Source: an uncultured virus (IMG/VR IMGVR_UViG_3300020207_000019) (lineage: Duplodnaviria; Heunggongvirae; Uroviricota; Caudoviricetes). Taken from it: a DNA stretch of 64,000 nucleotides. Shown here piece after piece: positions 14,037-57,548 of the stretch. The position numbers and the translations under genes are program-made. Each line of letters starts with the position of its first letter. The stretch's first letter is position 1. Under the pieces are notes generated by a model. It did not search any database. It was not told where the DNA came from and was given only the letters and a program-made list of their open reading frames with translations. Location of the stretch: IMG/VR virus record IMGVR_UViG_3300020207_000019; one strand, given 5' to 3'.

Positions 14037-14449
14037 TATACTCCTACAACTGGTATAGATAGGTCTTTTTGACTTTGTTTCTTTTTATAATCTTGTATTG
14101 CTGATTTTATCGCATCTTCCGCCAAAACTGAACAGTGGATTTTAACAGGTGGCAGAGATAGTTCTTCTGCGATTGCTGAATTTCTAATTGTTTCTGCTTC
14201 TGTAAGCGTCTTTCCCTTGAGTAATTCAGTGACAAGAGACGAGCTTGCAATCGCTGAGCCACAGCCGTAAGTCTTGAACTTCGCATTAGTGATAACTCCT
14301 TCATCGTTGACTTGTATCTGCAACTTCATTACATCACCACAGGCAGGAGCACCAACCATACCAGTACCAACAGTTGGATCATTTTTATCCAATGAACCCA
14401 CATTTCTTGGATTTTCGTAATGGTCTAAAACTTTATCTGAATAAGCCAT
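14036..14449 (-). CDS. iscU: Fe-S cluster scaffold IscU
   Basis: MAYSDKVLDHYENPRNVG, APACGDVM, GCGSAIASSS and LPPVKIHC. Confidence 0.95.
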   Translation of the reverse strand: MAYSDKVLDHYENPRNVGSLDKNDPTVGTGMVGAPACGDVMKLQIQVNDEGVITNAKFKTYGCGSAIASSSLVTELLKGKTLTEAETIRNSAIAEELSLPPVKIHCSVLAEDAIKSAIQDYKKKQSQKDLSIPVVGV

Positions 14450-14456
14450 TTAACTC

Positions 14457-14792
14457 CTATACTGCAAAACTAGAACCACAACCGCATTTTGAAGAAGCGT
14501 TTGGATTTTTAATTTCAAATTGTTCAGCCATCATTGATTTGGTATATTTGATAGTTGAACCTTGTAGATATTGTGATGACATAGCATCAACAATAACTTT
14601 AAGTTCCGTGCCTTCTAAATCAAACACGAAATCATCTTCATTTATTTCTTGGTCCCATGTGAAACCATATTGAAAACCTGAACATCCACCACCTTCAACA
14701 AATAATCTTAAACCTTTTATTTTATCCTTGTCTTCTTCGTCTTGGATAAGGTTTATGATTTTATCGGTGGCAGATTGTTCAATGGTTATCAT
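14457..14792 (-). CDS. erpA: A-type Fe-S carrier (ErpA/IscA/HesB family)
   Basis: GGGCSGFQY and NPNA..KCGCGSSF. Confidence 0.9.
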   Translation of the reverse strand: MITIEQSATDKIINLIQDEEDKDKIKGLRLFVEGGGCSGFQYGFTWDQEINEDDFVFDLEGTELKVIVDAMSSQYLQGSTIKYTKSMMAEQFEIKNPNASSKCGCGSSFAV

Positions 14793-28174: not shown

Positions 28175-28471
28175 TCAGCAATTCCATCGTCTTAATGCCT
28201 TATTAATCGCTGAATCTGGATCCCTAGCGTTTTCTGGCTTTGTCAATCTTTTCTTCATACCTTTCATTCTACGGCAGAATGATAATCTTCTTTTTGCTGA
28301 TTTAGAACCCTTTTTCAATTTTTTAGGGTCTTTTGTCACAGCCGTTTGTAATTTAGAACCTGGATTTTCTCTACGATAAGCATCAACAGCTTTTTGTGAG
28401 AGTCCATCAGTATTATCAGATTTATTTACTTTCTGCCAGTCTTCTGAAATAAATTGTTTAAAGTTAATCAT
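28175..28471 (-). CDS. basic internal-protein-like protein
   Basis: MINFKQFISE N-terminus; ENPGSKL...SFC.RM.G...RWNC module. Confidence 0.65.
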   Translation of the reverse strand: MINFKQFISEDWQKVNKSDNTDGLSQKAVDAYRRENPGSKLQTAVTKDPKKLKKGSKSAKRRLSFCRRMKGMKKRLTKPENARDPDSAINKALRRWNC

Positions 28472-30684
28472 CCTATTGGCCTCTTTGCTCTAAATGAAAT
28501 TAAATCAATACCTCGTCTTTTTAATTCGCCTTGTTTTTGTGCTGATAGTGATTCTGTTCCAGCATCAGCAGTATAAGATTCAAATGGTTTTTTCTTAGCT
28601 TTGTTAGATTGTGTATTTGGTCTAACTAAATTTTCACCAGAAGCTGCCATTGAAATACCCACTTCTGTTCCTTTGTCAATTGATTCTGATATTTTACCTT
28701 TACCAAAGTTAGAAACATTAACTGGTTTTCCACCTTTACCTTTTCTGTCAGCAACAGGATCATGTTTGCGTTTAACTTTAACAGCATTGGCTCTTTCTTT
28801 AGGTGTTAATAAAGAACGCTTTTTATTGCTCATACATTTTGGTTTGGGTTCGCCAGGTTCTCTTGCACAATCACCTTTGACATTACCTTTTGAATCAATT
28901 CTTTTCCAACCACCATCTGGATGATTTGGATTAAACCAATTTCTTAAATCTTCGTTTAATTTGTATTCTCTTCTAAAAGTTAATAATGTTCTTGCATCTG
29001 GTTCTGATAAAGCATAATGTTCTTCAACTTCTTCCTGTTCTTCTTCATCCGCTTTGAGTTTCTTAATCATTTTAGAAACTTCATCAGCATTATCACCGGT
29101 AATTGTAACCGATACTTGCTCGTTTAAGAATTCCTCAAACTGCTCATTAACTTTTTTCTCCATCTTAGGTTCAATTTCATTTTTTACAACTTGAACTAAA
29201 GTATCACCAACAACACGGTGTGTCACCGCACCATCTTTACCATATCGACCAAAGCCGTAGTATTCTAAACCAAGTCGTCCAGCTTCTTCTTTTGCTTTTG
29301 AGTTTGGATGAGCTTCTTGTCCAGTATCAGGCATTTGTTTAAGTGAAGCTGTTTTATCTTTTGCTTGTAGTTCTTTTGCAATCCATTTTTGTGAGCGTGG
29401 TGATTGTGGTTGTTCTTCAACAAACTTACTCACATAATCAAATATTTGATTCATCTCATCTTTTTTCTGTTTGACCACATCAGGACCAGCTTTTCTTAAG
29501 TCTTCCGAATTATCAAACTCCATGTATTTGTCACCAAACAATTCTGCAAATACTGGTCTAGCCTTTTGAACTCCATCCCATTTTTGTTTTCTGATATCTT
29601 CTGGAATAGTTCGGCCACCATTTTGACCTCGTTCTACATTTCGTTGTTTAGATACTTCATCAGCCGTATTCACCATAATCATAGCTGAATCATAACCTAA
29701 TTGGTCAAGAGCGCCTTTAATTCTTCTAATCTTATCAAGGTCTTCGCCTGTACCATTGATGATTAAACCATTTCTACCCATCAATGCAAGTTTTTGTTTT
29801 AACTCTGTTATGTTTTTTGCACGACCACGAACAAAGTTTCTTTTTTCTGTTTCACTAGGATCTGGATTTAACATCACTTTAGATATTTTATTTTTATCTA
29901 AAAGATATTCAAATGCTTTGTCTGAATTGATTTCTGTTAAACCATGGCCTTGTAGTGTGTTTGCTAAAACATAATCTTTACCTGAGCCAGGACCACCTGC
30001 CAAAAATACAGCTTTAAATATTCCTTTATCATGAACTCCTTCAGATAGAAGTTCTTCAAACTCAAAATTAATATCAATGTCTTCTTTAATGTTCATACCT
30101 TTTCTCAAGTCATGAAAAAGTTCTTTTGCATGGTGTTCAGGCACATGGCGTGGAACACCTTTTTTAAATTCATTAAAATTACCTTTAGCTGCATGAGAAC
30201 GCAATTTAGAACCAGACATACCTGAAATACCAGGTGCATCGGGGTCTCTTTGTCCGGCAGAATGAACCCGAATACCTTTGAAATTAAACAATGCGCCTTT
30301 GTGGGTGCCGTTGTATTTGTTTAATAACTTATGATATTCACCTGTTCTATCTGAACCTGCAACCATATGTAAGTGTGTCACACCACTTTTATGTAACTTT
30401 TCTGCTTGTTTTAAAAAGTTTGGGTGACTGCTAGATGATGTTGTTATATTTGTATGTGGAAAAAATCGTCTAGCGTGTTTAACTTTTTGTTTTGCTGAGA
30501 GAGGATTTTGTTTAGGGTCGTTAGAATGTGATAGAACGACATGATGACTAGCATTATGTTGTTTTGCTACACTTTTAACTTTATTGACTAGAGCCTCATG
30601 ACCTGTTGTTGGTGGTTGTAACCTACCAAAAGCCATTACGGCATGGCGCTCTGGCGCCTCTTGTATATAATCTCTAAATTTCAT
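28468..30684 (-). CDS. multidomain nucleotidyltransferase (cytidyltransferase-like) + P-loop kinase (zeta-toxin/PNK-like)
   Basis: FGRLQPPTTGH and VAGSDR motifs; AVFLAGGPGSGKD Walker A; N-terminus MKFRDYIQE. Confidence 0.75.
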   Translation of the reverse strand: MKFRDYIQEAPERHAVMAFGRLQPPTTGHEALVNKVKSVAKQHNASHHVVLSHSNDPKQNPLSAKQKVKHARRFFPHTNITTSSSSHPNFLKQAEKLHKSGVTHLHMVAGSDRTGEYHKLLNKYNGTHKGALFNFKGIRVHSAGQRDPDAPGISGMSGSKLRSHAAKGNFNEFKKGVPRHVPEHHAKELFHDLRKGMNIKEDIDINFEFEELLSEGVHDKGIFKAVFLAGGPGSGKDYVLANTLQGHGLTEINSDKAFEYLLDKNKISKVMLNPDPSETEKRNFVRGRAKNITELKQKLALMGRNGLIINGTGEDLDKIRRIKGALDQLGYDSAMIMVNTADEVSKQRNVERGQNGGRTIPEDIRKQKWDGVQKARPVFAELFGDKYMEFDNSEDLRKAGPDVVKQKKDEMNQIFDYVSKFVEEQPQSPRSQKWIAKELQAKDKTASLKQMPDTGQEAHPNSKAKEEAGRLGLEYYGFGRYGKDGAVTHRVVGDTLVQVVKNEIEPKMEKKVNEQFEEFLNEQVSVTITGDNADEVSKMIKKLKADEEEQEEVEEHYALSEPDARTLLTFRREYKLNEDLRNWFNPNHPDGGWKRIDSKGNVKGDCAREPGEPKPKCMSNKKRSLLTPKERANAVKVKRKHDPVADRKGKGGKPVNVSNFGKGKISESIDKGTEVGISMAASGENLVRPNTQSNKAKKKPFESYTADAGTESLSAQKQGELKRRGIDLISFRAKRPIG

Positions 30685-30731: not shown

Positions 30732-31298
30732 TTAAGATTTTACTTTATGTAACCAAGAGACACCATACATTTCAAAATCTGTTCCGAATCTTTCATCAAC
30801 GGCACGATATACACCATATTGGCCTCGAACATAATCATGACCACCAATATAACCGCCAATTTTAACTTTCGGAAACCAAGTCTGAATATCATCTCTAATA
30901 GATTCATATTCATGGTTAGCATCAATATAGACAAAGTCTAAGCTTCTGTCTTCATATAATTTAGCTGCTTCAAGACTTGCTGATTTAATTGGATTATAAT
31001 ATCCTTCAGCTGGTTTCATGTTCTCTAAAAATACATCATATGCAGTATCATTAACCATATCCTCTCTATGGTCCCATCCACCTTCTTGGTGTTCTGGACT
31101 ACCACGCCAGGTATCAATCACATCAAACTTAATATTTTTTCCACTGTTTGCTATTTCAACCGCCATGTAAGCGGCACTTCTACCATAATAGGCTCCAACT
31201 TCAATAAAATGTGATTCTGTTGGATGAATATTCACCATTTTGCTATATAAATTTTGAAAGTCAAACCATCCATGAATTGTTGTATAAAAATGTTCCAT
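30732..31298 (-). CDS. class I SAM methyltransferase (Methyltransf_24-like)
   Basis: IEVGAYYGRS, VYIDANHEY and GGHDY. Confidence 0.85.
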   Translation of the reverse strand: MEHFYTTIHGWFDFQNLYSKMVNIHPTESHFIEVGAYYGRSAAYMAVEIANSGKNIKFDVIDTWRGSPEHQEGGWDHREDMVNDTAYDVFLENMKPAEGYYNPIKSASLEAAKLYEDRSLDFVYIDANHEYESIRDDIQTWFPKVKIGGYIGGHDYVRGQYGVYRAVDERFGTDFEMYGVSWLHKVKS

Positions 31299-31307
31299 TT
31301 TTTCCTT

Positions 31308-31946
31308 TTATTCTGCAACTATGAACGCATTTCCATGAGGATGGTCATGTGTCCAATTTTCTTTAAGGTGACCAAATTCATAATCAAAATATTTGATTTT
31401 AAATCCAGCTTCTACGATAGTTGTCAACCACCATTCTTCTGGTTCTCTGACAACATGAGTTACATCCATTTCATATTCACGAATACGATATCTTTTACCA
31501 TCACCAAGTGGAACAGCAACAAATAAGTTTTTACATCTTCGCCTAAACCCAGCTAATACGGATGGAATATTTTCTTTTGGAATATGTTCTAATACATCTT
31601 TTGCAATAATTAAATCCCAACCACCTTGAATGTCTTCAACATTGTCTATTTTTTTTAAATATTGTTTAATTTTTTCATGGCCATTTGTAACAGCATATTC
31701 TGATACATCAACACCGTGTGCATCTTTTCCCAATAATCTCATGGCATAAACCATAAAACCTTTTGCACAACCAAAATCTAATACATTATCAAATTCAATA
31801 TTATTTATTATCGAAGAAGCTTCTCGTATGGTTCTTTCTGGCATCCATCGATAGTTCTCATAAGCACTTACACGATTACGAACACCGTCCTCAAAATATT
31901 TTTCATCAAAGACTTTTTTAATATCTTCAGCATTTTCAAATTTCAT
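31308..31946 (-). CDS. class I SAM methyltransferase
   Basis: VLDFGCAKG, GVDVS and DVLEHI. Confidence 0.85.
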   Translation of the reverse strand: MKFENAEDIKKVFDEKYFEDGVRNRVSAYENYRWMPERTIREASSIINNIEFDNVLDFGCAKGFMVYAMRLLGKDAHGVDVSEYAVTNGHEKIKQYLKKIDNVEDIQGGWDLIIAKDVLEHIPKENIPSVLAGFRRRCKNLFVAVPLGDGKRYRIREYEMDVTHVVREPEEWWLTTIVEAGFKIKYFDYEFGHLKENWTHDHPHGNAFIVAE

Positions 31947-31949
31947 AAT

Positions 31950-32594
31950 TTATTCCTCAAATTCATAACCAAATATTTCACAATCAAGCTTACACTTTTC
32001 AATTAATTCATTTTTATATTCTTTTGGAATAATCTCACTATAATGTCTTTCATCTTTTTTTGGATTTTTGTTTTCAAAATATAATTTAAATCTAGGAGAA
32101 AGTTTTTCTTTTAATGTTTTTTCCATAAACTGTAAATCTTCAAATCTAAAAACATCATCAACAAGAAGATTTTGACCGTCATATAAAAATGTATGTTGTT
32201 CATGAAAGTGAATCCATTTTCGTGAATTGTCATGATATTGTTCTAACAATAATTTCCATGTTATTGTATCATTAGGTTTTATTTTTTGAAGGAAATAATA
32301 TTCACTAACAAACCTATCAAAAGGATTTCTAACAATAGAAAATTTATATTTAGCTTCTGTAAACTCTTTTAAATGACTTTCAATAGCAAATTTTGATTTC
32401 ATATGTTGACATAAATCACCTAATCCTTCAACATAACCAAATAAAAAATTTCTTGATTCATACTGTGAATATTTATTTGTAAAAATTAAATCTTTATTTG
32501 GAAATCCATTAGCGTCCCATAACCATTTTTCAACAGAAGAACCAGCTGTCTTTGGTACATGAACAAAAAATGTATTGTGAACAGGCGAGTACAC
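31950..32594 (-). CDS. sulfotransferase family 2 protein
   Basis: HVPKTAGSS (PAPS 5'-PSB loop) and VRNPFDRFVSEY. Confidence 0.85.
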   Translation of the reverse strand: MYSPVHNTFFVHVPKTAGSSVEKWLWDANGFPNKDLIFTNKYSQYESRNFLFGYVEGLGDLCQHMKSKFAIESHLKEFTEAKYKFSIVRNPFDRFVSEYYFLQKIKPNDTITWKLLLEQYHDNSRKWIHFHEQHTFLYDGQNLLVDDVFRFEDLQFMEKTLKEKLSPRFKLYFENKNPKKDERHYSEIIPKEYKNELIEKCKLDCEIFGYEFEE

Positions 32595-33730
32595 TAAGCA
32601 AAATCATTATGTTTAGTTGGCATCAATACATCATCAATCAATTCGTTTTGATAAGCATACTTACAGAATGAACAATCATGGTGTCTTCTAAATTCATCTG
32701 CACCACCTACTTGTGAATTATAAAAATCTGTAATGCCTTCAATATCACACAATTTAAATTCATCATTAACTGCATAATTATTTTCTGGTGCTAACTCAGC
32801 AGATGGACAAACATATACATTACCATCTGTAAAGACACAAGGCTTAACTGTGTGCATATAACAGTGATTGTTTCGTCTTTCGCCCTTAAAATTAAAATCA
32901 GATAAGAAAGCGTATTGTAATTTACCATGTTCCGCTTCATGTTTAGCAATTAAACCTTTAATGGTTTCAATGTCTTGAGCCACAATTTTGGTGTCTTTGA
33001 TGGCATTGAAAGCAATACGACATGGTATTTTATGGTCTTCAACCCACTTCAACATCTTCATAAAGTTTTCTTCTTTATATTCGTTGGTTGCAAGTTTCTT
33101 CGCATGGTCATCTAACCATTCGCCTGTGATATTTGGATTCGTGGAGGTGTCTGTGGCACCGTCCCACACATATGCGGCTGTGATTTCTATATCTAAACCA
33201 TCAAACACATCAAGGTGATATTCATAGGGTTTCTTTTCATCAAATGAATACATTCCTAAACGAACCCATGACATCATGTGCCAATTCTTAATCTTTCTTA
33301 ATTTAGAACCATTGGTACAGATACCCATTTTGAAACCTTTATTGTAGGCATATTCAATGACTTCATCAAGTTTTGGATGTAATGTTGGTTCGCCACCACC
33401 CGTAAATTCCATGCCTCTCACGCCTAGGTCCCAAAATTGGTCAATCGCTGATTTCATTTGTTCAACAGTAAGCATCTCTTTCATGGCACGATTGGCAAAA
33501 CAGCAGAATGAACAAGTTAGATTACAAGGATTACATGGTGACATATGAAACATCACAGGTCTTGGTCTTTTACCTTCTTGTAATTCAATCAATCTGTCCA
33601 TGTGTTTCAGTAACTTAGCATGATTACTTGAGAAACTACGGCCTTTAATTTGATTATCAACTACATAATCTTTCTTTGTTTCTTTACTCAATGAACCTAG
33701 AGCGGTTTTTAGTTTAATAACTTCTGCCAT
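32594..33730 (-). CDS. radical SAM enzyme with C-terminal SPASM/twitch-like Cys motif
   Basis: CNLTCSFC, TGGGEPT, TNG, and C..DGNVYVC...CSFC. Confidence 0.9.
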   Translation of the reverse strand: MAEVIKLKTALGSLSKETKKDYVVDNQIKGRSFSSNHAKLLKHMDRLIELQEGKRPRPVMFHMSPCNPCNLTCSFCCFANRAMKEMLTVEQMKSAIDQFWDLGVRGMEFTGGGEPTLHPKLDEVIEYAYNKGFKMGICTNGSKLRKIKNWHMMSWVRLGMYSFDEKKPYEYHLDVFDGLDIEITAAYVWDGATDTSTNPNITGEWLDDHAKKLATNEYKEENFMKMLKWVEDHKIPCRIAFNAIKDTKIVAQDIETIKGLIAKHEAEHGKLQYAFLSDFNFKGERRNNHCYMHTVKPCVFTDGNVYVCPSAELAPENNYAVNDEFKLCDIEGITDFYNSQVGGADEFRRHHDCSFCKYAYQNELIDDVLMPTKHNDFA

Positions 33731-33732
33731 AA

Positions 33733-34473
33733 TTATACCTTTATTGTAGTTTCATATAATTTATATTCTGCTTGAAATGGTCCAGTTTCTTCATCATAAA
33801 CCTCTTTCATGTATTTCGGATATATGTTTTGAAAAATATCTGCCATTTCTTTATTTGCTTCGCTAACATCATAATATGTTTGTTTGCCAGGATGATACAT
33901 TGAAACTTCATGTATCACGCCACATTTTTCTTTTGTGATTGATGAAAATATCCAATCAAAACCATATCCACTTTTTACCTCATGATACTCAAAAAACTTT
34001 AATAGTTTAGGTATCAATGATGAATGAAAGAAAACACCCATGCCTTCATTGAAATTTGTAAGTGAATATTTACAGGTTTGGTCTTGATGTAAAATACCAT
34101 GACTTGAATCAGAACCAGCGATTGTAGATAACTGCCATATTTTTATATCATTTTCTTTTGCAATTTCTAAACCACGATTGACACTTTCTATATCAGTAAC
34201 AAGGTCATCGTCCCAAAAACCTATGTAATCATAATCACGATAATCATAAGTTTCCATAAAATGTCTAGCCATATCCCATTTAAAACCTTTATCTTTTATA
34301 AGGATATCATAAGTACCATCTTCTATGTGGTAATCATTAAAATTATAAACAACGGTCTGATAGTTTCTGGTGACTTTTGTATATCGCCAATGATTGTCTT
34401 TATCATAGGCATCATGAAAGTTTAGTGGTATTCCAACCGGCACAAAAATAATATTATTCATATTTTTTCTCAA
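33733..34473 (-). CDS. glycosyltransferase-like protein (DUF707-like)
   Basis: YDYIGFWDDD (DxD), KGFKW and SGYGFDW. Confidence 0.65.
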   Translation of the reverse strand: MRKNMNNIIFVPVGIPLNFHDAYDKDNHWRYTKVTRNYQTVVYNFNDYHIEDGTYDILIKDKGFKWDMARHFMETYDYRDYDYIGFWDDDLVTDIESVNRGLEIAKENDIKIWQLSTIAGSDSSHGILHQDQTCKYSLTNFNEGMGVFFHSSLIPKLLKFFEYHEVKSGYGFDWIFSSITKEKCGVIHEVSMYHPGKQTYYDVSEANKEMADIFQNIYPKYMKEVYDEETGPFQAEYKLYETTIKV

Positions 34474-35320
34474 TCATTTCTTTCCACTCAGGCACACGGT
34501 CATATTGATGTACCAATGCAAATGGTGTTCCAGTTGATGTGCAAACCATACCATCTTTCATTATTGGACTTGGTTCAACAACCTTATCTCCATATTGGTC
34601 TTTAATTTGTGGTCCTGTTGTTCCTAACTGTGCAGCCCAACCGTCTTCTGATTTTGCAAAGTTTGTAATGTCTTTGTATGATTTCATATTAAGTAAAACA
34701 TTTAATGCGGCTTGGTCTGGTCCGCCACCACCTTCAATAAGGTGTTGTGTGCCATTACAAAGCATATAGATGTTCAAAAAGAAATCAACCATTGTATCAA
34801 ATTTACCAGAGATAGTACCTGCATTATAGATGAGATTGTCATTACATTCTTCATGTATCAATGCACCAAAAGATTTCATTAAGTTGTTGGTGCCCCAATT
34901 CTCATCTTTGTATTTTATAGATTCACATGCAACATTGATTTCTTTATCACCAATGTTTTTTTCTAACCATTCTGATGGATTGGTCTGAAAGATAACATCT
35001 TTGACATCGGTTGTAATGATGTATCTATATTGTCCTTTAAATCGTTTGAGTAGGTACCAGAGATGTAGAAATCTTTCCACAACAATTGAAAAGTTTTCTT
35101 TGGGATATTTGAGTGTTTTGTTTTCTTCGTCTTTACCAAAAGCAAGAATTGAATAGTTTCTTTTAATCAATTCATCAACCGTATCATAGTCAACATTATA
35201 ACATATCATTGCTTTTGTGCCGGTAAAACCAGATTGGTCTAATGAATTGACCCAAGGTTTTATTTTATCAAAATCATAACCAGTAATAGTACCAACCACA
35301 ATATCATTAAGTAAAATCAT
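34454..35320 (-). CDS. GT-A fold glycosyltransferase-like protein
   Basis: TDVKDVIFQTNP, NAGTI, DQAALN and VHQYDR. Confidence 0.7.
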   Translation of the reverse strand: MILLNDIVVGTITGYDFDKIKPWVNSLDQSGFTGTKAMICYNVDYDTVDELIKRNYSILAFGKDEENKTLKYPKENFSIVVERFLHLWYLLKRFKGQYRYIITTDVKDVIFQTNPSEWLEKNIGDKEINVACESIKYKDENWGTNNLMKSFGALIHEECNDNLIYNAGTISGKFDTMVDFFLNIYMLCNGTQHLIEGGGGPDQAALNVLLNMKSYKDITNFAKSEDGWAAQLGTTGPQIKDQYGDKVVEPSPIMKDGMVCTSTGTPFALVHQYDRVPEWKEMIEKKYE

Positions 35321-38659: not shown

Positions 38660-39778
38660 TTACCGTATTATGTCAAGCTCTTTATCGCCAGTCCAAACTT
38701 CTATATCAGTTCTAAGTCTTTGTTCTTCTACTAACTTATCATATCGGTTAGCTGCTTTATTCTTCCACCATTCTACAATGTTTTCTAAATGGTGTTTATC
38801 ATAGTTCTCTTTGTCTTCTATTAACTTATCAGTCTTACCTGTAACAACATCAACAAAGTTACTGAAACCATAATTTGAAGCATAATATCTTTTCTTTTCA
38901 GTTAGATTCAAAGCGTTCTGAATAGTTTTCATAAACTTATCATATTCAGGTTCGCCTTTGAGTGCAACTTTAGTGAGTGATATTATCTTGTTTGATATTT
39001 TAAGTTTGCGTGATGAGGCATCTAACGGAACAATTTCATCACCAATGGCTTCTTCAACATATGATTTAAGGTCATCATATGGTTTGCCGTGCATCATTGG
39101 TAAAAAGTCTGAATCTGTTAGACCTTTGAAACGAAGATATGGCTTCATACCATCGTATTGTGAGGACGCCTTGGAACTTCCATATAAACTTGTTGTTTCA
39201 AACAAACAGGTATTCATATTATATTTGGCATTTAGCCTTTCACGAACCCAATGTGAACAACAAATGGCAGCCAGCAATTTACCGCCAAGATAATTAAAAC
39301 CAAAAGGCTGAGATGGCACAATCACAAAGCCCATTATTGAGGTTTTATTAAATGCTTCAGCTCCTTCTTTGGTTTGGGTGAAAACCTGGCCTAGCATTTC
39401 ATTTCTTGGTTTCATGTTAATTACTGGAGAACCAAGGCGTATAAACCCAACCCACTTCTTTGTATGTTTTTCCAAAACGGCCAATCTTAAACAGCGACCG
39501 GGAATACTTGTCATATTAGAGTGAGATGAAATCATATTGAGATAGATATCCCAATTTTCTTGTGGCAATTCTACAATCTCAAAATCCATATCATGTGGAT
39601 GAATTGTAAAATCGGAAAATAAATCTTCTTCTGGTCCCATACCAGGCAGAACAAACGGTCTATCTGATAATGAGTTTAGTTTTTGGTCACGAATATAGTC
39701 ATCAATGCGTTCAAATCGGTCAAAGTAATTAGAATAGGCTTGGGCACAATGAAGTGCTTGGTCTTTAGTTAGCTTCAT
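38660..39778 (-). CDS. DruA/DUF4338-like (Mom-related GNAT-fold) protein
   Basis: GFIRLGSP...PRN, IVPSQPFGFNYLGGKLLA, ETTSLYG...SQYD. Confidence 0.65.
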   Translation of the reverse strand: MKLTKDQALHCAQAYSNYFDRFERIDDYIRDQKLNSLSDRPFVLPGMGPEEDLFSDFTIHPHDMDFEIVELPQENWDIYLNMISSHSNMTSIPGRCLRLAVLEKHTKKWVGFIRLGSPVINMKPRNEMLGQVFTQTKEGAEAFNKTSIMGFVIVPSQPFGFNYLGGKLLAAICCSHWVRERLNAKYNMNTCLFETTSLYGSSKASSQYDGMKPYLRFKGLTDSDFLPMMHGKPYDDLKSYVEEAIGDEIVPLDASSRKLKISNKIISLTKVALKGEPEYDKFMKTIQNALNLTEKKRYYASNYGFSNFVDVVTGKTDKLIEDKENYDKHHLENIVEWWKNKAANRYDKLVEEQRLRTDIEVWTGDKELDIIR

Positions 39779-43175: not shown

Positions 43176-45711
43176 AGAAATCCTCCAATGAATTTACTTT
43201 TTCAGTTTGCCAACCAACACAATCTAAAATAATTTTAAGTGGGTCAAGGAAAGATTTCTCAAACTGTAATTCATAATCAACAAATTCATTAATACGAAAC
43301 TCTTTTGGTAAAGTGTTTGTAAATGAAATAACATCTGTTTTAAATATGTTTGGTTCTTTTAGATAGATAAACTTAATCTTTTCACCATCATTAATCTTTT
43401 GAAATCTTTTATTAAGTTTCATTTGTTCTATCATGTGATTGAAGACCAATGCACCTCGAACATGAATAGGTGTGCCTTTTGCCCATATTGTTTTACTGTT
43501 TGAATATTCTTTGAGACCATTCATTGACCTAGGGAAGGCAATATCTTCAACTCGAAGTGTTTTAAATTCTTGTCTGAATTCTTCAATATAATCTTGTAAT
43601 TTACTTTCATCACCAGATAATAATATCTTAAGTGATTCTTTAATCTTTTCTCTACAAGCAGCTGGTGTTGAAGATTTAATTGCTTCAAGACCTTGAATCT
43701 TCATTTGTGGTTCTGTAAATTGAACACCTTCTGAATTATGAACATTGAGAATATATCTTTTCTTGGCAGTCCAAACTGCTTTGTCAGCCAAGACTTCTCG
43801 CTTCATAGTCATCTTTTGACCATATGCGTTAATATATTGTGCAAGGTCAGAATAACTTTTATCAATAAAAGGTTGAATCTTTTCTTCACAAAATTTATCC
43901 ATGATTTCGATGGCTTTTGTGTTATCAATTTGTTTGCCTTCGTAAATTTTAGATATAAACGGTTCAAGGTTGAGATAAACCGAATCAGTATCCGATGCCA
44001 GAACATAGTCCATTCCTTGTGTCTGTAATATTTTATTTAAGAATTCATTTAGTCTTTTTTCAATCCAACGGATTGATAATTGACCAGCAAGTGTGATGCC
44101 TTCTGCCTGTCTTATGTCAAAGAAACGGAAGTATTCAGAGCCTAATGCACCGTAAGCTGAGTTTAAACATTCTTTTTTAGTTAATTGTAGATTAGCATAA
44201 CGAGAAACCAAAGCGCCATAGTCCGCTTTCTCTTGCGGTGTTTTAGCATTTTCATAATCTTGTTTTGCCTTTAACATAGCTGTCTTATACTTCGTTCTAT
44301 CATTATACATTTTTTCCAAGACTTCTGGTAGAAAACCTTGTTTGTCTTTTCTAAAGAACTGGCCATTTGGTGTCAGTGTATAATCTTTTACTTTTGATAA
44401 GTCAATTTCTTTTCGTAAAAGTTTTTCGATTGATATATTAGATGAGATAACATCTCGCATATCTTGTGTATAGTCTTCAGGATTGACAATTGTTTCTGGC
44501 GAAATGTTGTATTGCATCATCAAATGTGGATACAGTGAGTTCAAGTCAAACGATGCCACCCAATCAAACATACCGATTTGTGGGTCTTTTACATATGCAC
44601 CTTCATAAGCAGAACTTTTTCGATTGCCACTTTTTGGTGGTATTGCAATCTTTTTCTTATACAAATAATCGTGTGTGATAGCGTCCCACATTCTTACTTG
44701 AGTGAATATGTCATCATAATTTACCTTAGCATCATAAGCAATTGTAAGTGCCATTTCAATCAGTCGGCCTTTTTCATTAAGTTTTTCAACAAGTTCAACA
44801 TCTCGTATGTTATACTCAATGAATAACTGATAGTTCTTTTTATATAAGTCAAACAGACCTTCATATTCATCATATGCTATCTTTTTACCAACACCTTCTG
44901 CTTGTGCAACAGTGTCTAAACGATAGTTTTCTTGGTTTCTGTTTGGTGAAAACCGTCTAAACAATCTCATATAGTCTAGTGTGGCTACACCAGCAATTGT
45001 GCCAGTAACCATTGTTCGACCATAGAAAGTATCTTCTCTTGTTGATACTAGATTCCATGGTGATAATTTTTTCATCATGTCTTCACCAGCAATCTTGGTA
45101 AAACGATTGATGATATAAGGTATATCAAAACCATAAACATTCCAACCGGTGATTCCGTCTGGATAGTTTTTCTGCCAGAGAAACATAAATGCCTTAATCA
45201 AACTATATTCATCAGGACATTTTGTATAACTTACATCGTCACGGTGTTTTTGATAATCGCCTGTGCCAAAGACATAATAAGTTGGTTGATTTGAAAATTT
45301 GATTGTAATGGCTGTGATGGGTTCTGATGCTGTTTTAGGTTCAGGAAAACCATTCTCTGAACCAACTTCAATATCAATGTTAGCGATACAAAGGTCTGAA
45401 TAATTCCAATCTATAATTTCTTCTGGATTATTTTGTGAGATAAAAGGATATTCAAATCTATCGTTGCCGTAGATTTTGAAGTTATTGACATCTTTATATT
45501 TTTTTATAAAGTCACGAGCTTCACGAATAGAACCAAACTTCATAGGTTCTACTGGCTCGTTATGTAATGATTTCCATTCTGATTTCTTATTTGATGGAAC
45601 AAATAGTGTTGGAGAGTAATTTATTTTTTCTCTATGTCTTACTCCGTTTTTAACACCTCGGTAATATATGTTGTTTCCATAAACAAGAACATTAGTAAAG
45701 TAATTTCGCAT
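43168..45711 (-). CDS. T4 gp43-like family B DNA polymerase
   Basis: DIEV exonuclease motif, SFDLNSLYPH, K..LNSAYG and DTDS. Confidence 0.97.
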   Translation of the reverse strand: MRNYFTNVLVYGNNIYYRGVKNGVRHREKINYSPTLFVPSNKKSEWKSLHNEPVEPMKFGSIREARDFIKKYKDVNNFKIYGNDRFEYPFISQNNPEEIIDWNYSDLCIANIDIEVGSENGFPEPKTASEPITAITIKFSNQPTYYVFGTGDYQKHRDDVSYTKCPDEYSLIKAFMFLWQKNYPDGITGWNVYGFDIPYIINRFTKIAGEDMMKKLSPWNLVSTREDTFYGRTMVTGTIAGVATLDYMRLFRRFSPNRNQENYRLDTVAQAEGVGKKIAYDEYEGLFDLYKKNYQLFIEYNIRDVELVEKLNEKGRLIEMALTIAYDAKVNYDDIFTQVRMWDAITHDYLYKKKIAIPPKSGNRKSSAYEGAYVKDPQIGMFDWVASFDLNSLYPHLMMQYNISPETIVNPEDYTQDMRDVISSNISIEKLLRKEIDLSKVKDYTLTPNGQFFRKDKQGFLPEVLEKMYNDRTKYKTAMLKAKQDYENAKTPQEKADYGALVSRYANLQLTKKECLNSAYGALGSEYFRFFDIRQAEGITLAGQLSIRWIEKRLNEFLNKILQTQGMDYVLASDTDSVYLNLEPFISKIYEGKQIDNTKAIEIMDKFCEEKIQPFIDKSYSDLAQYINAYGQKMTMKREVLADKAVWTAKKRYILNVHNSEGVQFTEPQMKIQGLEAIKSSTPAACREKIKESLKILLSGDESKLQDYIEEFRQEFKTLRVEDIAFPRSMNGLKEYSNSKTIWAKGTPIHVRGALVFNHMIEQMKLNKRFQKINDGEKIKFIYLKEPNIFKTDVISFTNTLPKEFRINEFVDYELQFEKSFLDPLKIILDCVGWQTEKVNSLEDFFG

Positions 45712-46031
45712 TAAGTCGCTTTTCTAATTGCTTGTAGTTCTTCTGGTGTAGCCATTTGAATGCCTGAACCAAATATCTTACTGTATTGATTCACAACATC
45801 TTTGATTGGTGTGGTGATACACAAAACATTATCCATATCAAATTCAATACCCGTTTTAAACTCTTCACTAAATTCTAAAAACGGTGCAAAACCCATCATC
45901 GCTTGACCGTCTTTGCCCATTTGTGAATATATCTGAACGGGTTTTTTGATTTTAACTTTGTTTTCTTTTGTGCAATCAACTTGGCCAATGATTGACTGGT
46001 TTGTTTTAAATGTAATTATTAAAGTATCCAT
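45711..46031 (-). CDS. conserved T4-like hypothetical protein
   Basis: Typical small gene upstream of gp43; QY.KIFGSGI. Confidence 0.65.
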   Translation of the reverse strand: MDTLIITFKTNQSIIGQVDCTKENKVKIKKPVQIYSQMGKDGQAMMGFAPFLEFSEEFKTGIEFDMDNVLCITTPIKDVVNQYSKIFGSGIQMATPEELQAIRKAT

Positions 46032-46051
46032 ATGTGTCCATTATAATATAT

Positions 46052-46510
46052 TTAATCTTTATTTGAGGTAATCTTTTCAAGTTGACTTTGATATGTCCTA
46101 TTTCTTAATTCGGTTGAACTAAATCGGTGAGAACGGCCATTGAATACTATATCAATGTTTCTTTCTACACAAATATTTTTACCCGTAAATTCTTTGTCTC
46201 TGTATTCCTCACCAATAATACGAACATTGAGTGGTAAGAACATAAGTAAATCTTCTAAATCTTTTTCCGTTTCATAGACGATAATTTCATCAACATATTT
46301 TACGGCAGATAGTTGAACATAGCGCTCAACAATAGATTGAATTGGTTTGCTTTTTAAATCCGGCCTGTCAATAGATGGATTAGTTTGTAAACCACATATG
46401 AGATAATCACAATATTGTTTTGCTTCTTCGAGCATCAAAATGTGGCCTGCATGAAGTAAGTCAAATGTAGAGCAGGTAAATCCAACTCCGTTTTTTGGTC
46501 TTGTCATCAT
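46052..46510 (-). CDS. TagD-like cytidylyltransferase
   Basis: FDLLHAGH, KYVDEII and RSHRFSSTELR. Confidence 0.85.
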   Translation of the reverse strand: MMTRPKNGVGFTCSTFDLLHAGHILMLEEAKQYCDYLICGLQTNPSIDRPDLKSKPIQSIVERYVQLSAVKYVDEIIVYETEKDLEDLLMFLPLNVRIIGEEYRDKEFTGKNICVERNIDIVFNGRSHRFSSTELRNRTYQSQLEKITSNKD

Positions 46511-46522
46511 ATAGTAAACTCC

Positions 46523-46551
46523 AAAAAATAAAGGGAACCGAAGTTCCCTCT
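46523..46551 (-). terminator. intrinsic terminator with cUUCGg loop after pqqA
   Basis: AGGGAAC-TTCG-GTTCCCT followed by TTATTTTT. Confidence 0.85.
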
Positions 46552-46578
46552 ATTACTTTTTTTCTTAACAGAAAATGA

Positions 46579-46650
46579 TTACTTGTTCATTACATACATT
46601 GTAACTTCGAAGCCAAAACGCATTTCTGTTGCAGCTGGTTTAGTCCACAT
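46579..46650 (-). CDS. pqqA: PQQ precursor peptide PqqA (23 aa, not in ORF track)
   Basis: MWTKPAATEMRFGFEVTMYVMNK contains the W..P...R.GFEVT.Y pattern (ExxxY). AAGGAG RBS is 7 nt upstream. Confidence 0.95.
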   Translation of the reverse strand: MWTKPAATEMRFGFEVTMYVMNK

Positions 46651-46654
46651 AGTG

Positions 46655-46790
46655 TTTCTCCTTGATTAGGTTTTAAAATCTAATCAGCTCAGCAGAGAGT
46701 ATTTCTACAAAGTCTGCCTTGAGATTCATCAAATAACATAATTTATTTGACGCTACTATATTATACCAAAACTCAGCTAAAAGCAATAGA
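46655..46790 (-). promoter_or_regulatory. pqqA promoter and structured 5' leader
   Basis: TTGCTT...TGGTATAAT (extended -10), followed by three hairpins before the RBS. Confidence 0.6.
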
Positions 46791-46808
46791 GAAAATCATT
46801 AATTAAAA

Positions 46809-47021
46809 CTAATTAACTGTTTTTTTAGACTTTTTTGTTTCTTTAGTGTCTTCTTCGGTTGTAGCTGTTTGTTCAGCTTCTTGTTGCATAGCAGCAAATT
46901 GTGGTTCAGCTTGTTCTTTAATTTTACGAATTAGGTTAAAAACCTCATCAAAGGGGTGTTTACCTAGTGATCTAAGAACGGTGTTAATTTCCTGCACTTC
47001 AAGTTCTAATTTTAAAGCCAT
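46809..47021 (-). CDS. small hypothetical protein
   Basis: LG..PF.EV..LI.KI..QA..Q motif; AAGGA RBS. Confidence 0.65.
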   Translation of the reverse strand: MALKLELEVQEINTVLRSLGKHPFDEVFNLIRKIKEQAEPQFAAMQQEAEQTATTEEDTKETKKSKKTVN

Positions 47022-47032
47022 AGTTATTTTCC

Positions 47033-47497
47033 TTATTTAATTAAACCAGTTTTATAAACAGTTCTGCCATCTTCTTTCATAGCAGTTAAAGCAAGTTTTC
47101 GGTTATCACCGTTTGCTTTATATGAAACATGAACCCAACCAGAATCAGGAATACCCGGTGTATAAAATTCTAAAATGACTTGGTCGAATTCTGTATTTTT
47201 TACAATCCATTCTGCCACTTCGGCATTTGGAACTCCCGGCACCTCAATATCAACCGCTTCACCATAACAATGTTGGCTAGTTGGTGTTCCGCCAACAGCT
47301 TCATTAAGTTTAGGTCCTCTATAACCAGAATTGATAACTGTTGGACCAAATCGGTCTCTTACAGGTTGAACAACATTTTCAAACAAAGCTTTAGCTGCCG
47401 TTAGATGTTGGTCATTTGGAGTGTTATCAATATCCAAACGAAGAGCTGTTTGGCTCTTTGTATATTCTGCTAATGTAAAATTTTTTGATAAGTTCAT
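47033..47497 (-). CDS. peptidase M15A-family endolysin
   Basis: LSKNFTL.E, SGYR...N..VGG...SQH..GEAVD and WVHVS. Confidence 0.9.
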   Translation of the reverse strand: MNLSKNFTLAEYTKSQTALRLDIDNTPNDQHLTAAKALFENVVQPVRDRFGPTVINSGYRGPKLNEAVGGTPTSQHCYGEAVDIEVPGVPNAEVAEWIVKNTEFDQVILEFYTPGIPDSGWVHVSYKANGDNRKLALTAMKEDGRTVYKTGLIK

Positions 47498-47511
47498 AAT
47501 CTTTTTCCTAT

Positions 47512-47537
47512 AAAATAAAGGGGTGATTTCTCACCCC
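47512..47537 (-). terminator. intrinsic terminator
   Basis: GGGGTGA-GAAA-TCACCCC followed by a T-rich tail. Confidence 0.8.
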
Positions 47538-47544
47538 GTTATAT

Positions 47545-47805
47545 TTATTTCTGATTAATAAAGCTATACATCTTCTCAGCTGTTTGAAGAACCATGTCGA
47601 GACCTGGATACTGAGGCATATCAACTTTAGTTACAACCTCACCAGTTGTTGCATCTTTTTTGGTTGTTAATTCCCAACCAGCGAATTTTGTATGGTATTC
47701 ATCCAAAACCAATTCTTTAGCCATTGCTAAAACATCAGTGCGGATTTCGTAACCTGTTTTGTTGAATTTTACTTCTGGTAATTTTGGTGTTTCAAATTTA
47801 GACAT
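47545..47805 (-). CDS. conserved hypothetical protein
   Basis: GYEIR..VL.MAK...AEKMYSF; AAGGAG RBS. Confidence 0.7.
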   Translation of the reverse strand: MSKFETPKLPEVKFNKTGYEIRTDVLAMAKELVLDEYHTKFAGWELTTKKDATTGEVVTKVDMPQYPGLDMVLQTAEKMYSFINQK

Positions 47806-47837
47806 AATTTTCTCCTTGTGTGTCTGTGTTTGTGTGT

Positions 47838-47870
47838 AAAAAAGATGGGAGTAGTTATACCCCCACCTTT
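47838..47870 (-). terminator. intrinsic terminator after hsp20
   Basis: AAGGTGGGGGTA-TAAC-TACTCCCATCTT followed by a T run. Confidence 0.7.
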
Positions 47871-48358
47871 CATTTAGTTTCTTTCAAAAGCTCTTGCTTG
47901 TGTAGTTTAAGTTCTTTACCAATTTCAATTTTACGAGGTTTTTTATTTTCAGGAATTACATTCTCTAAACCAATTCGTAAAATACCATCTTTATATTCGG
48001 CACCATGAACTTCTACTGTGTCAGCAATTTTCAATGTCTTTGTGAAAGCTCTGAGACCAATGCCTTTGTGTAGATATGTGATATCTGCCAAATCAGCATT
48101 TTTCTCATCTTTGTTGCCCTTTACAATTAAATGTCCGTCATCAACAGTAATGTCAATTTCATCTTTTGAATAACCAGCAACCGCTAGTTCAACGACATAA
48201 TGATAGTCATCAACTTTAACGATATTGTGTGGTGGAAAAGAGTGATTTGTTTTTTCTGTTGTAGCTTCTAACATTCTCTCAACTTCATTAAATAAATTTT
48301 CAAACCCAAGTGTTGAGTGATATAAAGGTGTAAATGAAAAGCGATTTGCTAATGTCAT
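47870..48358 (-). CDS. small heat-shock protein Hsp20 (IbpA-like)
   Basis: FPPHNI, ELAVAG, YLHKGI..RAF and DGIL...PE.KKPRKI. Confidence 0.93.
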   Translation of the reverse strand: MTLANRFSFTPLYHSTLGFENLFNEVERMLEATTEKTNHSFPPHNIVKVDDYHYVVELAVAGYSKDEIDITVDDGHLIVKGNKDEKNADLADITYLHKGIGLRAFTKTLKIADTVEVHGAEYKDGILRIGLENVIPENKKPRKIEIGKELKLHKQELLKETK

Positions 48359-48453
48359 GTTATATTCTCCTTATTAAGCAAGATTAAAAAAGCGAGACCC
48401 TAGTTAGGCATCTCGCTTATATTTATAACATATTTGGTCTAAAAATGAGGCAA

Positions 48454-48861
48454 TTAATGTTGTTCGCCTGGTTTTTTTCCAATATTATATTTTGCAATTA
48501 AATCCCAATCGTCTTTTTCTTTGAACGATATGATTTTAATTTGATGTAAAGGTGCTACATTGTCCTCAAGTAATTTTGGGTTCATAATTTTAATCAGACC
48601 CCATTCTTCTAACAACTTAGCTATTGCGTTTCTTCTTTGAATGTCATTCTCGGATATATTTGATGGTTTGCCGTCAAGAGCAAACAGTTCTTTAAAATGA
48701 ACGATATAATACTTGCCTTGCTTATGTAAAATGTGGCAAGACTGATAAAGAACTTTTTCTTTGCGTGAAGAGACCCCAATTCGGGTTAAAGTCTCTCTCA
48801 CTTTTAGAAAGTCATCTTGGTGTTTGAGTGTGACTTCTATAAAATTGTTTAAATCTACCAT
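48454..48861 (-). CDS. regA: translational repressor RegA
   Basis: DFLKVRETLTRIG, LYQSCHILHKQG.YYIVHFKELF. Confidence 0.95.
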   Translation of the reverse strand: MVDLNNFIEVTLKHQDDFLKVRETLTRIGVSSRKEKVLYQSCHILHKQGKYYIVHFKELFALDGKPSNISENDIQRRNAIAKLLEEWGLIKIMNPKLLEDNVAPLHQIKIISFKEKDDWDLIAKYNIGKKPGEQH

Positions 48862-48862
48862 T

Positions 48863-49255
48863 TTATTTTTTCTTTCCTAAACCGCCAGTGTTAGCCATTT
48901 GTTTTAATTCTTCTATCTGTTGTTGTGTGAGTATAGACAGGACTTCTTTGGCTTTTTGGTCGGAGATATGATACACTTGCTTTATACATTCTATATCATC
49001 ACTCTTTACAGTCTTAACCCACTTAGCAAATGGTCTTTTATTTTTTCTTACTATATTTAGTAAAAAATCATTTTGTAACTTGTTATCCAAGTGATGGTGT
49101 TGATTCATTTCATTAGCATAAAAGATACAATCACGGTGATAAGATAATGAACGGTTTGTGAGAAATGGCTTGTATTCTTTTTCAGTTAGTTCATCAACAA
49201 TAAGTTGTTTGTTACCTGAAAGAATCTCTTTTACATAATCAAAAGGGCTACTCAT
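48863..49255 (-). CDS. clamp loader small subunit (gp62-like)
   Basis: Y.PF..NR.LS...D....ANEMN; synteny between gp44 and regA. Confidence 0.88.
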   Translation of the reverse strand: MSSPFDYVKEILSGNKQLIVDELTEKEYKPFLTNRSLSYHRDCIFYANEMNQHHHLDNKLQNDFLLNIVRKNKRPFAKWVKTVKSDDIECIKQVYHISDQKAKEVLSILTQQQIEELKQMANTGGLGKKK

Positions 49256-56264: not shown

Positions 56265-57548
56265 TTACCGACCAACCTGTGTTAGATATTTTTCTTTAGT
56301 TTCGTCCCAAGACAAGGTAATCAAGTCATCATAGAATAAAGTCTCATTGGACACTCTTCCTTGTTCTTTCAGATTGGTTATCCTCTTGGTTGCATACTTC
56401 TCTTTCCATATATTTACAAGAGCTTCAGTTGATGTGTCAAACGATTTGACCAATTTGTCTTCTGTTATATCACCACGGAGAAACTCTGCTGTGTTATCAT
56501 ATAAAGGTGAGAAGTAAATACCTCTAGCGTGTTCTGAACGAATCAGTGTCTTATCTAATTTCATTTGAGAATAGGCAAACTGTAAAGACCTGTTTTTATG
56601 GTCTCGTTTATGTGGCTGACCACTTGGTTTCTTTGCAACATACCAATCAAAATATTTTCTTGTATGGTTTTTCTTTAACCAATGATTAATTCGATATCTT
56701 GTTTTTCTTGTTGGTTCAAATGCAACCGAACCAGCTGTAAAACCCATTTTCTTCCAATGTGATAGTCTATCGTATTGTGATAGACCTCCTGTCTTTGTCT
56801 TACCGTAGAGCGATGTGGTGGTTACACCAACAAGTTTGTCGCCATATAACTCCTGCCATAATTGTTGTATCTTATCGTCTAAACATAATAAGGCTAACAA
56901 TTTACCACCTGTGTAATTATAACCTAAAGGTTGGAGAGGAACAATCGTGGATCCAATTGCTGTGTGGTTAATCATTGATCCTTGCGTTTTAAGTTCTCTA
57001 CTCCAACCAATAAAGTTATCTCTTGGTGTTAAGTCTAAAAAGTCTGAGGAAATACAAATAACACCAAGATACTGTTTGGTCGGTTTATCTCTTACCACAA
57101 AATTAAGATTACGACCAATATTAGAATTGTTTTTCATTGTTGATGAGAATGTTCGTATTACATTCCAGAGTTCAGGTAAATCATCTTGCTTGTTCGCATA
57201 AATGAGTTCTGGTTCCAATTTCATGTAAGTATCTACATCAGCTGGATTCCAAATATTAGTTTTGACTTCTTGTATGGCACGGCGTTGTTTCTCATCTTCT
57301 AATACTTTAGTTTCGCCTTCCCATAAATCATTGACGGTCACAAATGGATATTTTTCTTGCACCTCACACCATTTCTGATAGAGTGTGTATTCTTTTACAT
57401 CCATTTGAGAAACAAATTCTAGGTCTTTAATGGTCTCTTGCTTAACTTCTTCAAAATCAATTTCAGGCATTTTAGCCACAGGATTAGCATCTGACCATTT
57501 TTGCCATTGTGTTTCTACATCATCTTTTGGGTCCCAAGCGTAACTCAT
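56265..57548 (-). CDS. DruA/DUF4338-like (Mom-related GNAT-fold) protein
   Basis: GRNLNFVVRD...LGVI...RDNFIGW, IVPLQPLGYNYTGGKLLALL, TTTSLYG...SQYDRL..WKKMGFT.G. Confidence 0.7.
   Translation of the reverse strand: MSYAWDPKDDVETQWQKWSDANPVAKMPEIDFEEVKQETIKDLEFVSQMDVKEYTLYQKWCEVQEKYPFVTVNDLWEGETKVLEDEKQRRAIQEVKTNIWNPADVDTYMKLEPELIYANKQDDLPELWNVIRTFSSTMKNNSNIGRNLNFVVRDKPTKQYLGVICISSDFLDLTPRDNFIGWSRELKTQGSMINHTAIGSTIVPLQPLGYNYTGGKLLALLCLDDKIQQLWQELYGDKLVGVTTTSLYGKTKTGGLSQYDRLSHWKKMGFTAGSVAFEPTRKTRYRINHWLKKNHTRKYFDWYVAKKPSGQPHKRDHKNRSLQFAYSQMKLDKTLIRSEHARGIYFSPLYDNTAEFLRGDITEDKLVKSFDTSTEALVNIWKEKYATKRITNLKEQGRVSNETLFYDDLITLSWDETKEKYLTQVGR

Follow-up and report, generated by a model that had tools for sequence, protein, structure and literature searches.

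On the minus strand of the window, by which we mean the whole 64,000-nt stretch of DNA analyzed here, positions 46579..46650 contain an open reading frame (ORF) of 23 codons followed by TAA (72 nt) that encodes the peptide MWTKPAATEMRFGFEVTMYVMNK. This peptide scores 42.4 bits with the Pfam model of PqqA (PF08042; cutoff 21.1, E = 6.4e-11) and 40.4 bits with the NCBIfam equivalog TIGR02107 (cutoff 20, E = 1.8e-10), far beyond chance expectation. The first-pass annotation had read the ORF as pqqA and recommended a scan with the PqqA hidden Markov model; both curated cutoffs are exceeded about twofold, and the identification holds. In the synthesis of PQQ, the Glu and Tyr of the E-x3-Y motif of PqqA become cross-linked, and the 23-residue peptide, which falls within the expected PqqA length of ~20-30 residues, carries this pair as E15-V-T-M-Y19. 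The invariance of Glu15 and Tyr19 in our comparison sets was set by the search pattern and hence provides no independent evidence.

No other pqq gene was detected in the window, in agreement with the initial reading, either with Pfam (92 ORFs) or with NCBIfam, and tblastn searches with the PqqB, PqqC, PqqD, and PqqE sequences of a host operon, itself confirmed by NCBIfam, found no homologs in either the window or the 418 kb of viral loci searched. The radical SAM protein of the window was considered as a stand-in for PqqE and rejected, given its score of 29.5 bits against the PqqE cutoff of 381 and the lack of a tblastn match to host PqqE. The association with pqqBCDE is likewise missing for most cellular pqqA copies of Methylophilaceae; because genomes of this family contain several pqqA genes along with one pqqBCDE set, such linkage is not required for membership in the PqqA family.

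The pqqA gene is flanked by T4-type phage genes and is thus located within a bona fide phage genome, not in contaminating host DNA. Pfam searches identified a T4-type replication module consisting of family B DNA polymerase, RegA, the clamp, both clamp-loader subunits, UvsX, UvsW, a gp41-like helicase, a gp46/47-like nuclease pair, and DsbA. Also encoded in the window are ribonucleotide reductase, ThyX, thioredoxins, IscU, IscA, peptide deformylase, Hsp20, and a CobS-like ATPase. The polymerase is at most ~50% identical to any in the GenBank phage collection, with the nearest relatives found in cyanomyoviruses, indicating that the window represents a lineage without a cultured member that is distinct from Melnitz. 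The ORF is, accordingly, a real, intact pqqA gene in a marine T4-like phage.

Several other features of the window were recorded in the course of the annotation. A ROSE_3 RNA thermometer (RF02523; 52.5 bits against a gathering score of 43) was detected at 48353-48417 on the minus strand, directly upstream of a phage Hsp20/IbpA-like gene (47870-48358, minus strand), so that a heat-shock gene of the phage may here be controlled by an RNA thermometer of host type; the Hsp20 cluster is present in 11 of the 81 viral pqqA loci among the matches listed. The genes for IscU (NifU_N, 177.7 bits) and an IscA-like Fe-S assembly protein lie at 14036-14792 (minus strand), and a SegE-type GIY-YIG homing endonuclease (121.7 bits; 13399-13860, minus strand) is encoded among small genes beside them. 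Two methyltransferases, a sulfotransferase, a radical SAM protein, and a DUF707-like protein are encoded in a row at 30732-35320 (minus strand), a cluster that may function in sugar or nucleotide modification. Matches to the Pfam family DruA, known from Druantia defense, were found at 38660-39778 and 56265-57548 (both minus strand; 40.9 and 74.1 bits, respectively), and a 738-residue protein (28468-30684, minus strand) contains a zeta-toxin/AAA_33 kinase-like domain at residues 224-375.

The pqqA gene is embedded in a compact unit, all elements of which are on the minus strand. The next ORF upstream ends at 46809, and the gap that follows contains a weak -35-like hexamer, TTGCTT (46781..46786), of putative function, which is part of a conserved upstream block and precedes the TATAAT hexamer by 14 nt, and an extended -10 promoter box, TGGTATAAT (46760..46768). 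Between this box and pqqA lies a leader of ~100 nt with two hairpins, the first of which (GGCAGA, a 16-nt loop, and UCUGCU; 46691..46718) is the consensus fold of five phage leaders, whereas the second (GAUUAG...CUAAUC; 46664..46685) ends 1 nt before the ribosome-binding site. The Shine-Dalgarno sequence AAGGAG (46658..46663) is positioned 7 nt before the ATG. The coding sequence is followed by an intrinsic-terminator-like hairpin with a 7-bp stem and a UUCG loop, AGGGAAC-UUCG-GUUCCCU, and a T-run, UUAUUUUUU (46523..46549), and directly after this hairpin comes the ribosome-binding site of a cytidylyltransferase-like gene that starts at 46510. The predicted 236-nt RNA of the pqqA unit folds better than shuffled sequences (z = -2.74).

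To compare these elements, we aligned the pqqA unit of the window with three related viral loci, of which L121 is identical to the window over this stretch, whereas L037 and L046 differ. Across the three distinct sequences (window/L121, L037, and L046), the block ATGATTTTCTCTATTGCTTTTA...TTTGGTATAATATA does not vary, whereas adjacent positions do. The extended -10 motif of the TGGTATAAT type occurs six times in the window, compared with 6.25 occurrences expected; with no such enrichment, TGNTATAAT was dropped as evidence by itself, and the support for the promoter box comes from conservation, not from motif frequency. A consensus promoter scan of the window did not list the TGGTATAAT box because its -35 element is poor. 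The upstream block TTGCTTTTA (46778-46786, minus strand) ends 12 nt before the -10 hexamer and resembles the MotA box of T4 middle promoters; no match to the MotA or AsiA families was found among the 92 window ORFs scanned with Pfam.

The structural elements of the unit are retained in the relatives with substitutions that preserve pairing. The terminator stem shows a compensatory change from A-U to G-C in L037; the scan of the window for structures and promoters reported this hairpin for the plus strand only. In hairpin 1, the middle pair alternates between C-G and U-A with changes on both sides (three U-A and two C-G among the five leaders), and the hairpin-1 motif is also found in L018 and L104, behind a different upstream sequence. 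The stem of hairpin 2 is retained in L037 and L046, with a different loop. Inspection by eye further showed an AGGAG- or AAGGA-like site before most viral pqqA copies among the matches listed. Of the signals initially proposed for this unit, the strong AAGGAG ribosome-binding site and the cUUCGg terminator are both present as described, the latter reinforced by the compensatory change; the TGnTATAAT promoter stands insofar as the box is present and invariant in the relatives, but the motif itself occurs at chance frequency and is accompanied by a poor -35 element.

Transcription of the region was assessed using RNA libraries. Four metatranscriptome runs yielded contigs that are 99-100% identical to the window across the region, three of which, spanning 46104-48255, 46579-48361, and 46621-48324, include pqqA in whole or in part, and the fourth, spanning 46774-48324, stops upstream of it; parts of the examined stretch have no RNA-contig cover. 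The word depth of the RNA contigs is 12-16, compared with 2-4 over the polymerase gene. These contigs, which carry no information on strand, ends, or the time of infection and may include DNA, fit transcription of the stretch from the Hsp20 gene to pqqA. Three of them bridge pqqA to the upstream genes, and one runs through the terminator. Given that all neighbors of pqqA in the window are on the same strand and that RNA contigs extend from the Hsp20 gene through pqqA, cotranscription is possible. The contig ends at 46579, 46621, and 46774 were rejected as transcript ends, because many genomes share the conserved coding sequence, at which assemblies probably break off. The claim of the first-pass annotation that pqqA forms a stand-alone unit therefore survives in part: the relatives retain both the promoter-like box and the terminator, making stand-alone transcription plausible, but the RNA contigs bridge the upstream genes, and one passes the terminator. 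Where pqqA is antisense to both neighbors, as in 21 of the 81 viral loci (among the matches listed) and in Venkman, its transcription must be autonomous.

In two RNA runs (X10 and X11), short contigs are piled up on the pqqA coding sequence in the bin 46505-46671, with bin means of 1630 and 7892, including one contig of 33 nt at a depth of 9000. Several of these deep short contigs continue into sequence unlike that of the window; they derive from other genomes, and their depth suggests a very high abundance of pqqA messages in the communities sampled.

To examine how common pqqA is among viruses, we scanned IMG/VR with a sequence pattern and retrieved at least 120 loci; all matches listed lie in a PqqA-like ORF, most of them behind a ribosome-binding site. 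The 121 pattern matches in L001-L121 were reduced to 112 ORFs of 23 codons with an M start and then to 105 nonredundant copies, with the 8 residues fixed by the search pattern not counted as conserved. Among the matches listed, these 105 copies represent 99 distinct coding sequences, and yet residues free in the pattern are nearly fixed, namely, T17 in 105/105 copies (encoded by four different codons), F14 in 104/105, and T3 in 101/105. Viral pqqA, as represented by copies collected with the 8-residue pattern, is under purifying selection.

The genomic neighborhoods of pqqA were analyzed in 81 loci, 80 from the IMG/VR scan and L121 from the nearest virus record (the latter overlapping L033). 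Among these listed matches, 69 different pairs of neighbors surround pqqA, and phage hallmark clusters are present in 71 of the 81 loci, 22 of which are T4-like and 26 of the Sak/Erf/RecE type, with none being both. The median gap upstream of viral pqqA is 126 nt (81 loci, among the matches listed). A terminator-like hairpin follows 49/111 viral copies among the matches listed, compared with 7/380 control windows, so that the architecture of the unit is not universal. Overall, pqqA in phages is widespread, solo, conserved, and usually unannotated, with a host-like leader and terminator.

A tblastn search of 50,697 GenBank phage records, a check suggested at the outset, recovered 12 records, 10 of which are genuine phages carrying the gene. 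Nine of these are named phages of cultured Methylophilales/Methylophilaceae strains (Venkman, P19250A, MEP301, MEP401, MEP402, and four Melnitz records); the last of the ten, from a spring, is an uncultured podovirus. The NCBI taxonomy names additional phages for these hosts, HIM624-A, pHIMB624-A, MEP431-434, Venkman EXVC038S, MG-MTP1, and RSA-MFP1, that were not among the tblastn matches; they are either outside the collection or devoid of the gene, and the presence of pqqA in all such phages can therefore not be claimed. The two remaining matches, both labeled "Acinetobacter phage MD-2021a," were rejected as phage cases, given that the contigs carry pqqB, pqqC, and pqqD together with ppk, other cellular genes, and, where pqqE would be expected, a radical SAM gene; one of them, L255 (CAKLQF020000010.1), with pqqB, pqqC, pqqD, ppk, and 5'-nucleotidase, resembles a piece of a bacterial chromosome.

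Across the six GenBank phage records inspected, pqqA is either unannotated or overlapped by an opposite-strand "hypothetical protein." Such an opposite-strand call overlaps the unannotated pqqA ORF in Melnitz-1 (L249, MZ577095.1) and in L251 (MW202481.1). In Melnitz-1, a tRNA-Leu gene lies ~15 nt or less after pqqA.

For comparison with cellular genes, we scanned one genome per prokaryote species with a degenerate pattern, obtaining at least 126 loci. The titles of nearly all cellular loci listed refer to Methylophilus, Methylotenera, Methylobacillus, Methylovorus, Novimethylophilus, Candidatus Methylopumilus, or unclassified Burkholderiales/Betaproteobacteria. The exact window peptide MWTKPAATEMRFGFEVTMYVMNK was found in at least 57 cellular and at least 29 viral copies and is the commonest PqqA form among the cellular matches listed, including those from Methylophilus, Methylotenera, and Ca. 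Methylopumilus, as expected from its initial description as a Methylophilaceae-type PqqA. Among the matches listed, a terminator-like hairpin follows 105/131 cellular copies, compared with 15/435 control windows, and inspection by eye revealed a hairpin in many of the cellular upstream leaders compared.

A locus titled Ca. Methylopumilus led to a genome whose family comprises 81 genomes. All 81 contain pqqA according to the PqqA model, in 1-12 matches per genome (392 in total); the 1.3-Mb genomes of this family have two or three matches. PqqE was detected above its cutoff in 80 of the 81 genomes, and on this count Methylophilaceae are not hosts lacking pqqBCDE, a concern raised by the first-pass annotation. 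These results agree with published accounts, as far as the accessible text goes, of 3-12 pqqA copies and a single pqqBCDEFG set in Methylophilaceae (Beck et al. 2014, PMC4109929) and of five pqqA copies, three of them separate, in a PQQ-producing methylotroph strain (PMC9851590). Methylophilaceae hosts appear able to use a phage PqqA and seem to value pqqA dosage.

The prediction of an OM43/LD28-like methylotroph host is compatible with the nine phages of cultured Methylophilales/Methylophilaceae strains and with the habitat of the sequencing runs that hold the stretch 44000-49000, which are labeled salt marsh, estuary, or marine, some possibly being the source of the DNA itself. It also fits the 83-84% identity between the phage IscU and copies in three small Methylophilaceae-type genomes, although this is a weak sign of a probable host relationship because IscU is generally conserved. 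Two other host markers were tried and set aside: Hsp20 matched only one of five small Methylophilaceae-type genomes, at 52% identity, and is uninformative on the host; and the nucleotide identity of the coding sequence, with the best cellular copy at 69/72 and many at 64-67, does not single out a host species.

The host-identical peptide, the purifying selection, the solo state of the gene, its recurrence in unrelated phages, the multicopy habit of the hosts, and the presence in RNA libraries jointly suggest, with a probability that we put at roughly 0.75, that the window pqqA is a functional auxiliary metabolic gene of host origin, supplying a consumed precursor to the host PqqBCDE. The peptide is letter for letter the commonest PqqA of Methylophilaceae, and hence a substrate-like copy, not a divergent one. 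From the observed gene identity, conservation under selection, solo state in viruses, pathway in the host family, and RNA-library presence, we infer the translation of the gene, the processing of its product to PQQ, its timing, and its benefit as follows. The T4-like phage, whose hosts would be OM43-like Methylophilaceae of marine or brackish water, would express a small pqqA message of ~235 nt, comprising the predicted promoter, the ~100-nt leader with two hairpins, the strong ribosome-binding site, the 23 codons, and the terminator. Host PqqD/PqqE would then cross-link Glu15 to Tyr19 of the phage peptide, and PqqB, PqqC, and a protease would finish the cross-linked peptide to PQQ, the cofactor of the XoxF/MxaF methanol dehydrogenases, with one peptide spent per PQQ made. 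In this way, the 72-nt substrate gene alone could keep up the supply of the precursor, and hence of methanol-derived energy, when host transcription falters. Because PQQ is not consumed in catalysis, fresh synthesis within a single latent period is an assumption of this scheme.

Among the alternatives, a different action of the peptide or its RNA, such as a decoy for PqqD/PqqE, provision of PQQ for other quinoproteins or redox protection, or a regulatory RNA, fares best, while still being unlikely. The conservation of the leader hairpins would be compatible with a regulatory function, but searches of the pqqA unit against Rfam gave no family at threshold, the best being PhrS (19.8 bits against 37), followed by CrcZ (17.7 bits). 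Ser6, within the sequence SAT at residues 6-8, is present in 24/98 nonredundant viral copies and 0/132 cellular copies retrieved with the same pattern (among the matches listed; L001-L121 versus L122-L247), a contrast that could mean altered handling by PqqD and may reflect either a virus-specific leader allele or a sampling effect. The classification of viral pqqA, pqqD, and pqqE as phosphate-solubilizing genes in a 2026 report (PMC13188868, accessible text) would also fit a use of PQQ outside methanol oxidation. The identity of the window peptide to the host form, by contrast, is what is expected of a substrate, not of an inhibitor.

Distinctly less probable is that pqqA is a neutral passenger, that is, host DNA that recombined into phage genomes at the dispersed host pqqA copies and brings the phage no benefit. 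The gene is tiny and cheap to carry, hosts contain 1-12 dispersed copies of similar small-unit architecture, and the nucleotide identity to cellular copies reaches 69/72, all of which would be expected under such a scenario. Drift of a passenger, however, is hard to square with the saturation of synonymous sites in the 105 viral copies listed, in which the peptide and the ribosome-binding site are kept, with the persistence of pqqA in unrelated phage types across 69 neighbor contexts among the matches listed, or with the conservation of the whole unit, including compensatory stem changes, in diverged relatives. That a temperate phage inserting into a host pqqA carries the copy as the integration-site half that restores the gene is highly improbable: insertion classically targets short multicopy genes that have a terminator behind them and many viral loci come from recombinase-bearing phage types, but the window has a T4-like replication module and no match to an integrase family among the 92 ORFs scanned, its copy is complete with its own ribosome-binding site and leader, and only the coding sequence and ribosome-binding site, not the flanks, match other phages.

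The reading of pqqA as an auxiliary gene that supplies precursor to the host pathway can be extended, more tentatively and at somewhat less than even odds, to the proposition that pqqA is a signature auxiliary gene of Methylophilaceae phages, acquired or moved many times (in T4-like, Sak/Erf-type, and other phages) always without the enzymes of the pathway and often accompanied by a leader and a terminator resembling those of the hosts. If so, PQQ-dependent methylotrophy during infection would be limited by the supply of the peptide rather than by the enzymes; the 72-nt gene could be used as a marker for host prediction in uncultured viruses; and leader variants enriched in viruses, Ser6 among them, might adjust how PqqD recognizes the peptide. 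Much of the methanol that phytoplankton release is turned over by OM43 and related Methylophilaceae. Should phages routinely resupply PqqA, infection would sustain C1 oxidation instead of stopping it, and precursor supply would emerge as the weak point of the PQQ pathway. In practical terms, pqqA is missed by gene callers, as in the six GenBank phage records, and could serve to flag methylotroph phages in viromes.

A phage pqqA is not new in kind, having been published in 2020 (PMC7678222). In our literature searches, that report was the only one to combine pqqA with a virus and Methylophilaceae; no report of pqqA in phages of OM43 was found, and no further viral case was apparent from the titles and abstracts of the papers on pqqA and phages, among those listed. 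The word "pyrroloquinoline" was not found in the accessible text of the papers on MEP301, MEP401/402, and Venkman, and in the accessible text of the Melnitz paper PQQ figures solely as an additive to the medium (PMC9004378). A 2024 paper on ribosomal peptides was rejected as a viral case, since PqqA is there, in the portion available, a bacterial gene coexpressed with defense systems. What we did not find in print is the breadth of the phenomenon, with at least 120 IMG/VR contigs, 69 neighbor contexts, and 9 GenBank records of named methylotroph phages. The window thus adds an uncultured T4-like lineage, and the present analysis adds breadth and anatomy to a principle already described.

The closest published system is a T4-like viral population from Lake Baikal, predicted to infect Methylophilaceae, that encodes PqqA, for which it was proposed that the viral PqqA boosts PQQ for methanol dehydrogenase (Coutinho et al. 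2020, Microbiome 8:163, PMC7678222). As described in the accessible text of that paper, the Baikal phage resembles the window in being a T4-like phage of ~35% G+C that carries PqqA; a peptide deformylase and a glycerol-3-phosphate cytidylyltransferase are also cited in the paper, and genes of these two kinds are present in the window as well (PMC7678222). The two differ in that the Baikal case comes from fresh water, whereas the DNA of the window is found in salt-marsh, estuary, and marine runs, and in that, comparing by description, the paired Baikal population encodes a methanol dehydrogenase, whereas the window does not (PMC7678222). For its own phage, the Baikal paper further proposes, in the same text, a radical SAM protein as a stand-in for PqqE (PMC7678222).

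The orphan chromosomal pqqA copies of Methylophilaceae also resemble the window gene, with an identical peptide encoded away from pqqBCDE (PMC4109929 and PMC9851590, in part). They share the layout as well, in which a gap and a hairpin-bearing leader precede a strong ribosome-binding site, 23 codons, and a terminator-like hairpin; unlike the orphan copies, the window gene lies between phage genes, and its leader sequence is not shared with the cellular copies compared. Among the phages of OM43/LD28 (Venkman, Melnitz, MEP301, MEP401/402, and P19250A), the likeness consists in a 23-codon PqqA with 77-96% identity to that of the window that stands solo among phage genes, but these phages belong to different lineages, with the window polymerase only ~50% identical to that of any cultured phage. 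The pqqA of Venkman is antisense to all neighbors examined, whereas that of the window is co-oriented with its neighbors, and in the Melnitz-1 record an ORF is called on the strand opposite pqqA, which itself is left unannotated.

In its logic, the window pqqA is comparable to the psbA gene of cyanophages, through which the phage resupplies a fast-turnover host component and prolongs energy generation during infection. In both cases, a host component that is consumed or rapidly turned over would be replenished by the phage, but the product of the window gene would be neither an enzyme nor a structural subunit but a sacrificial peptide substrate of a host cofactor pathway.
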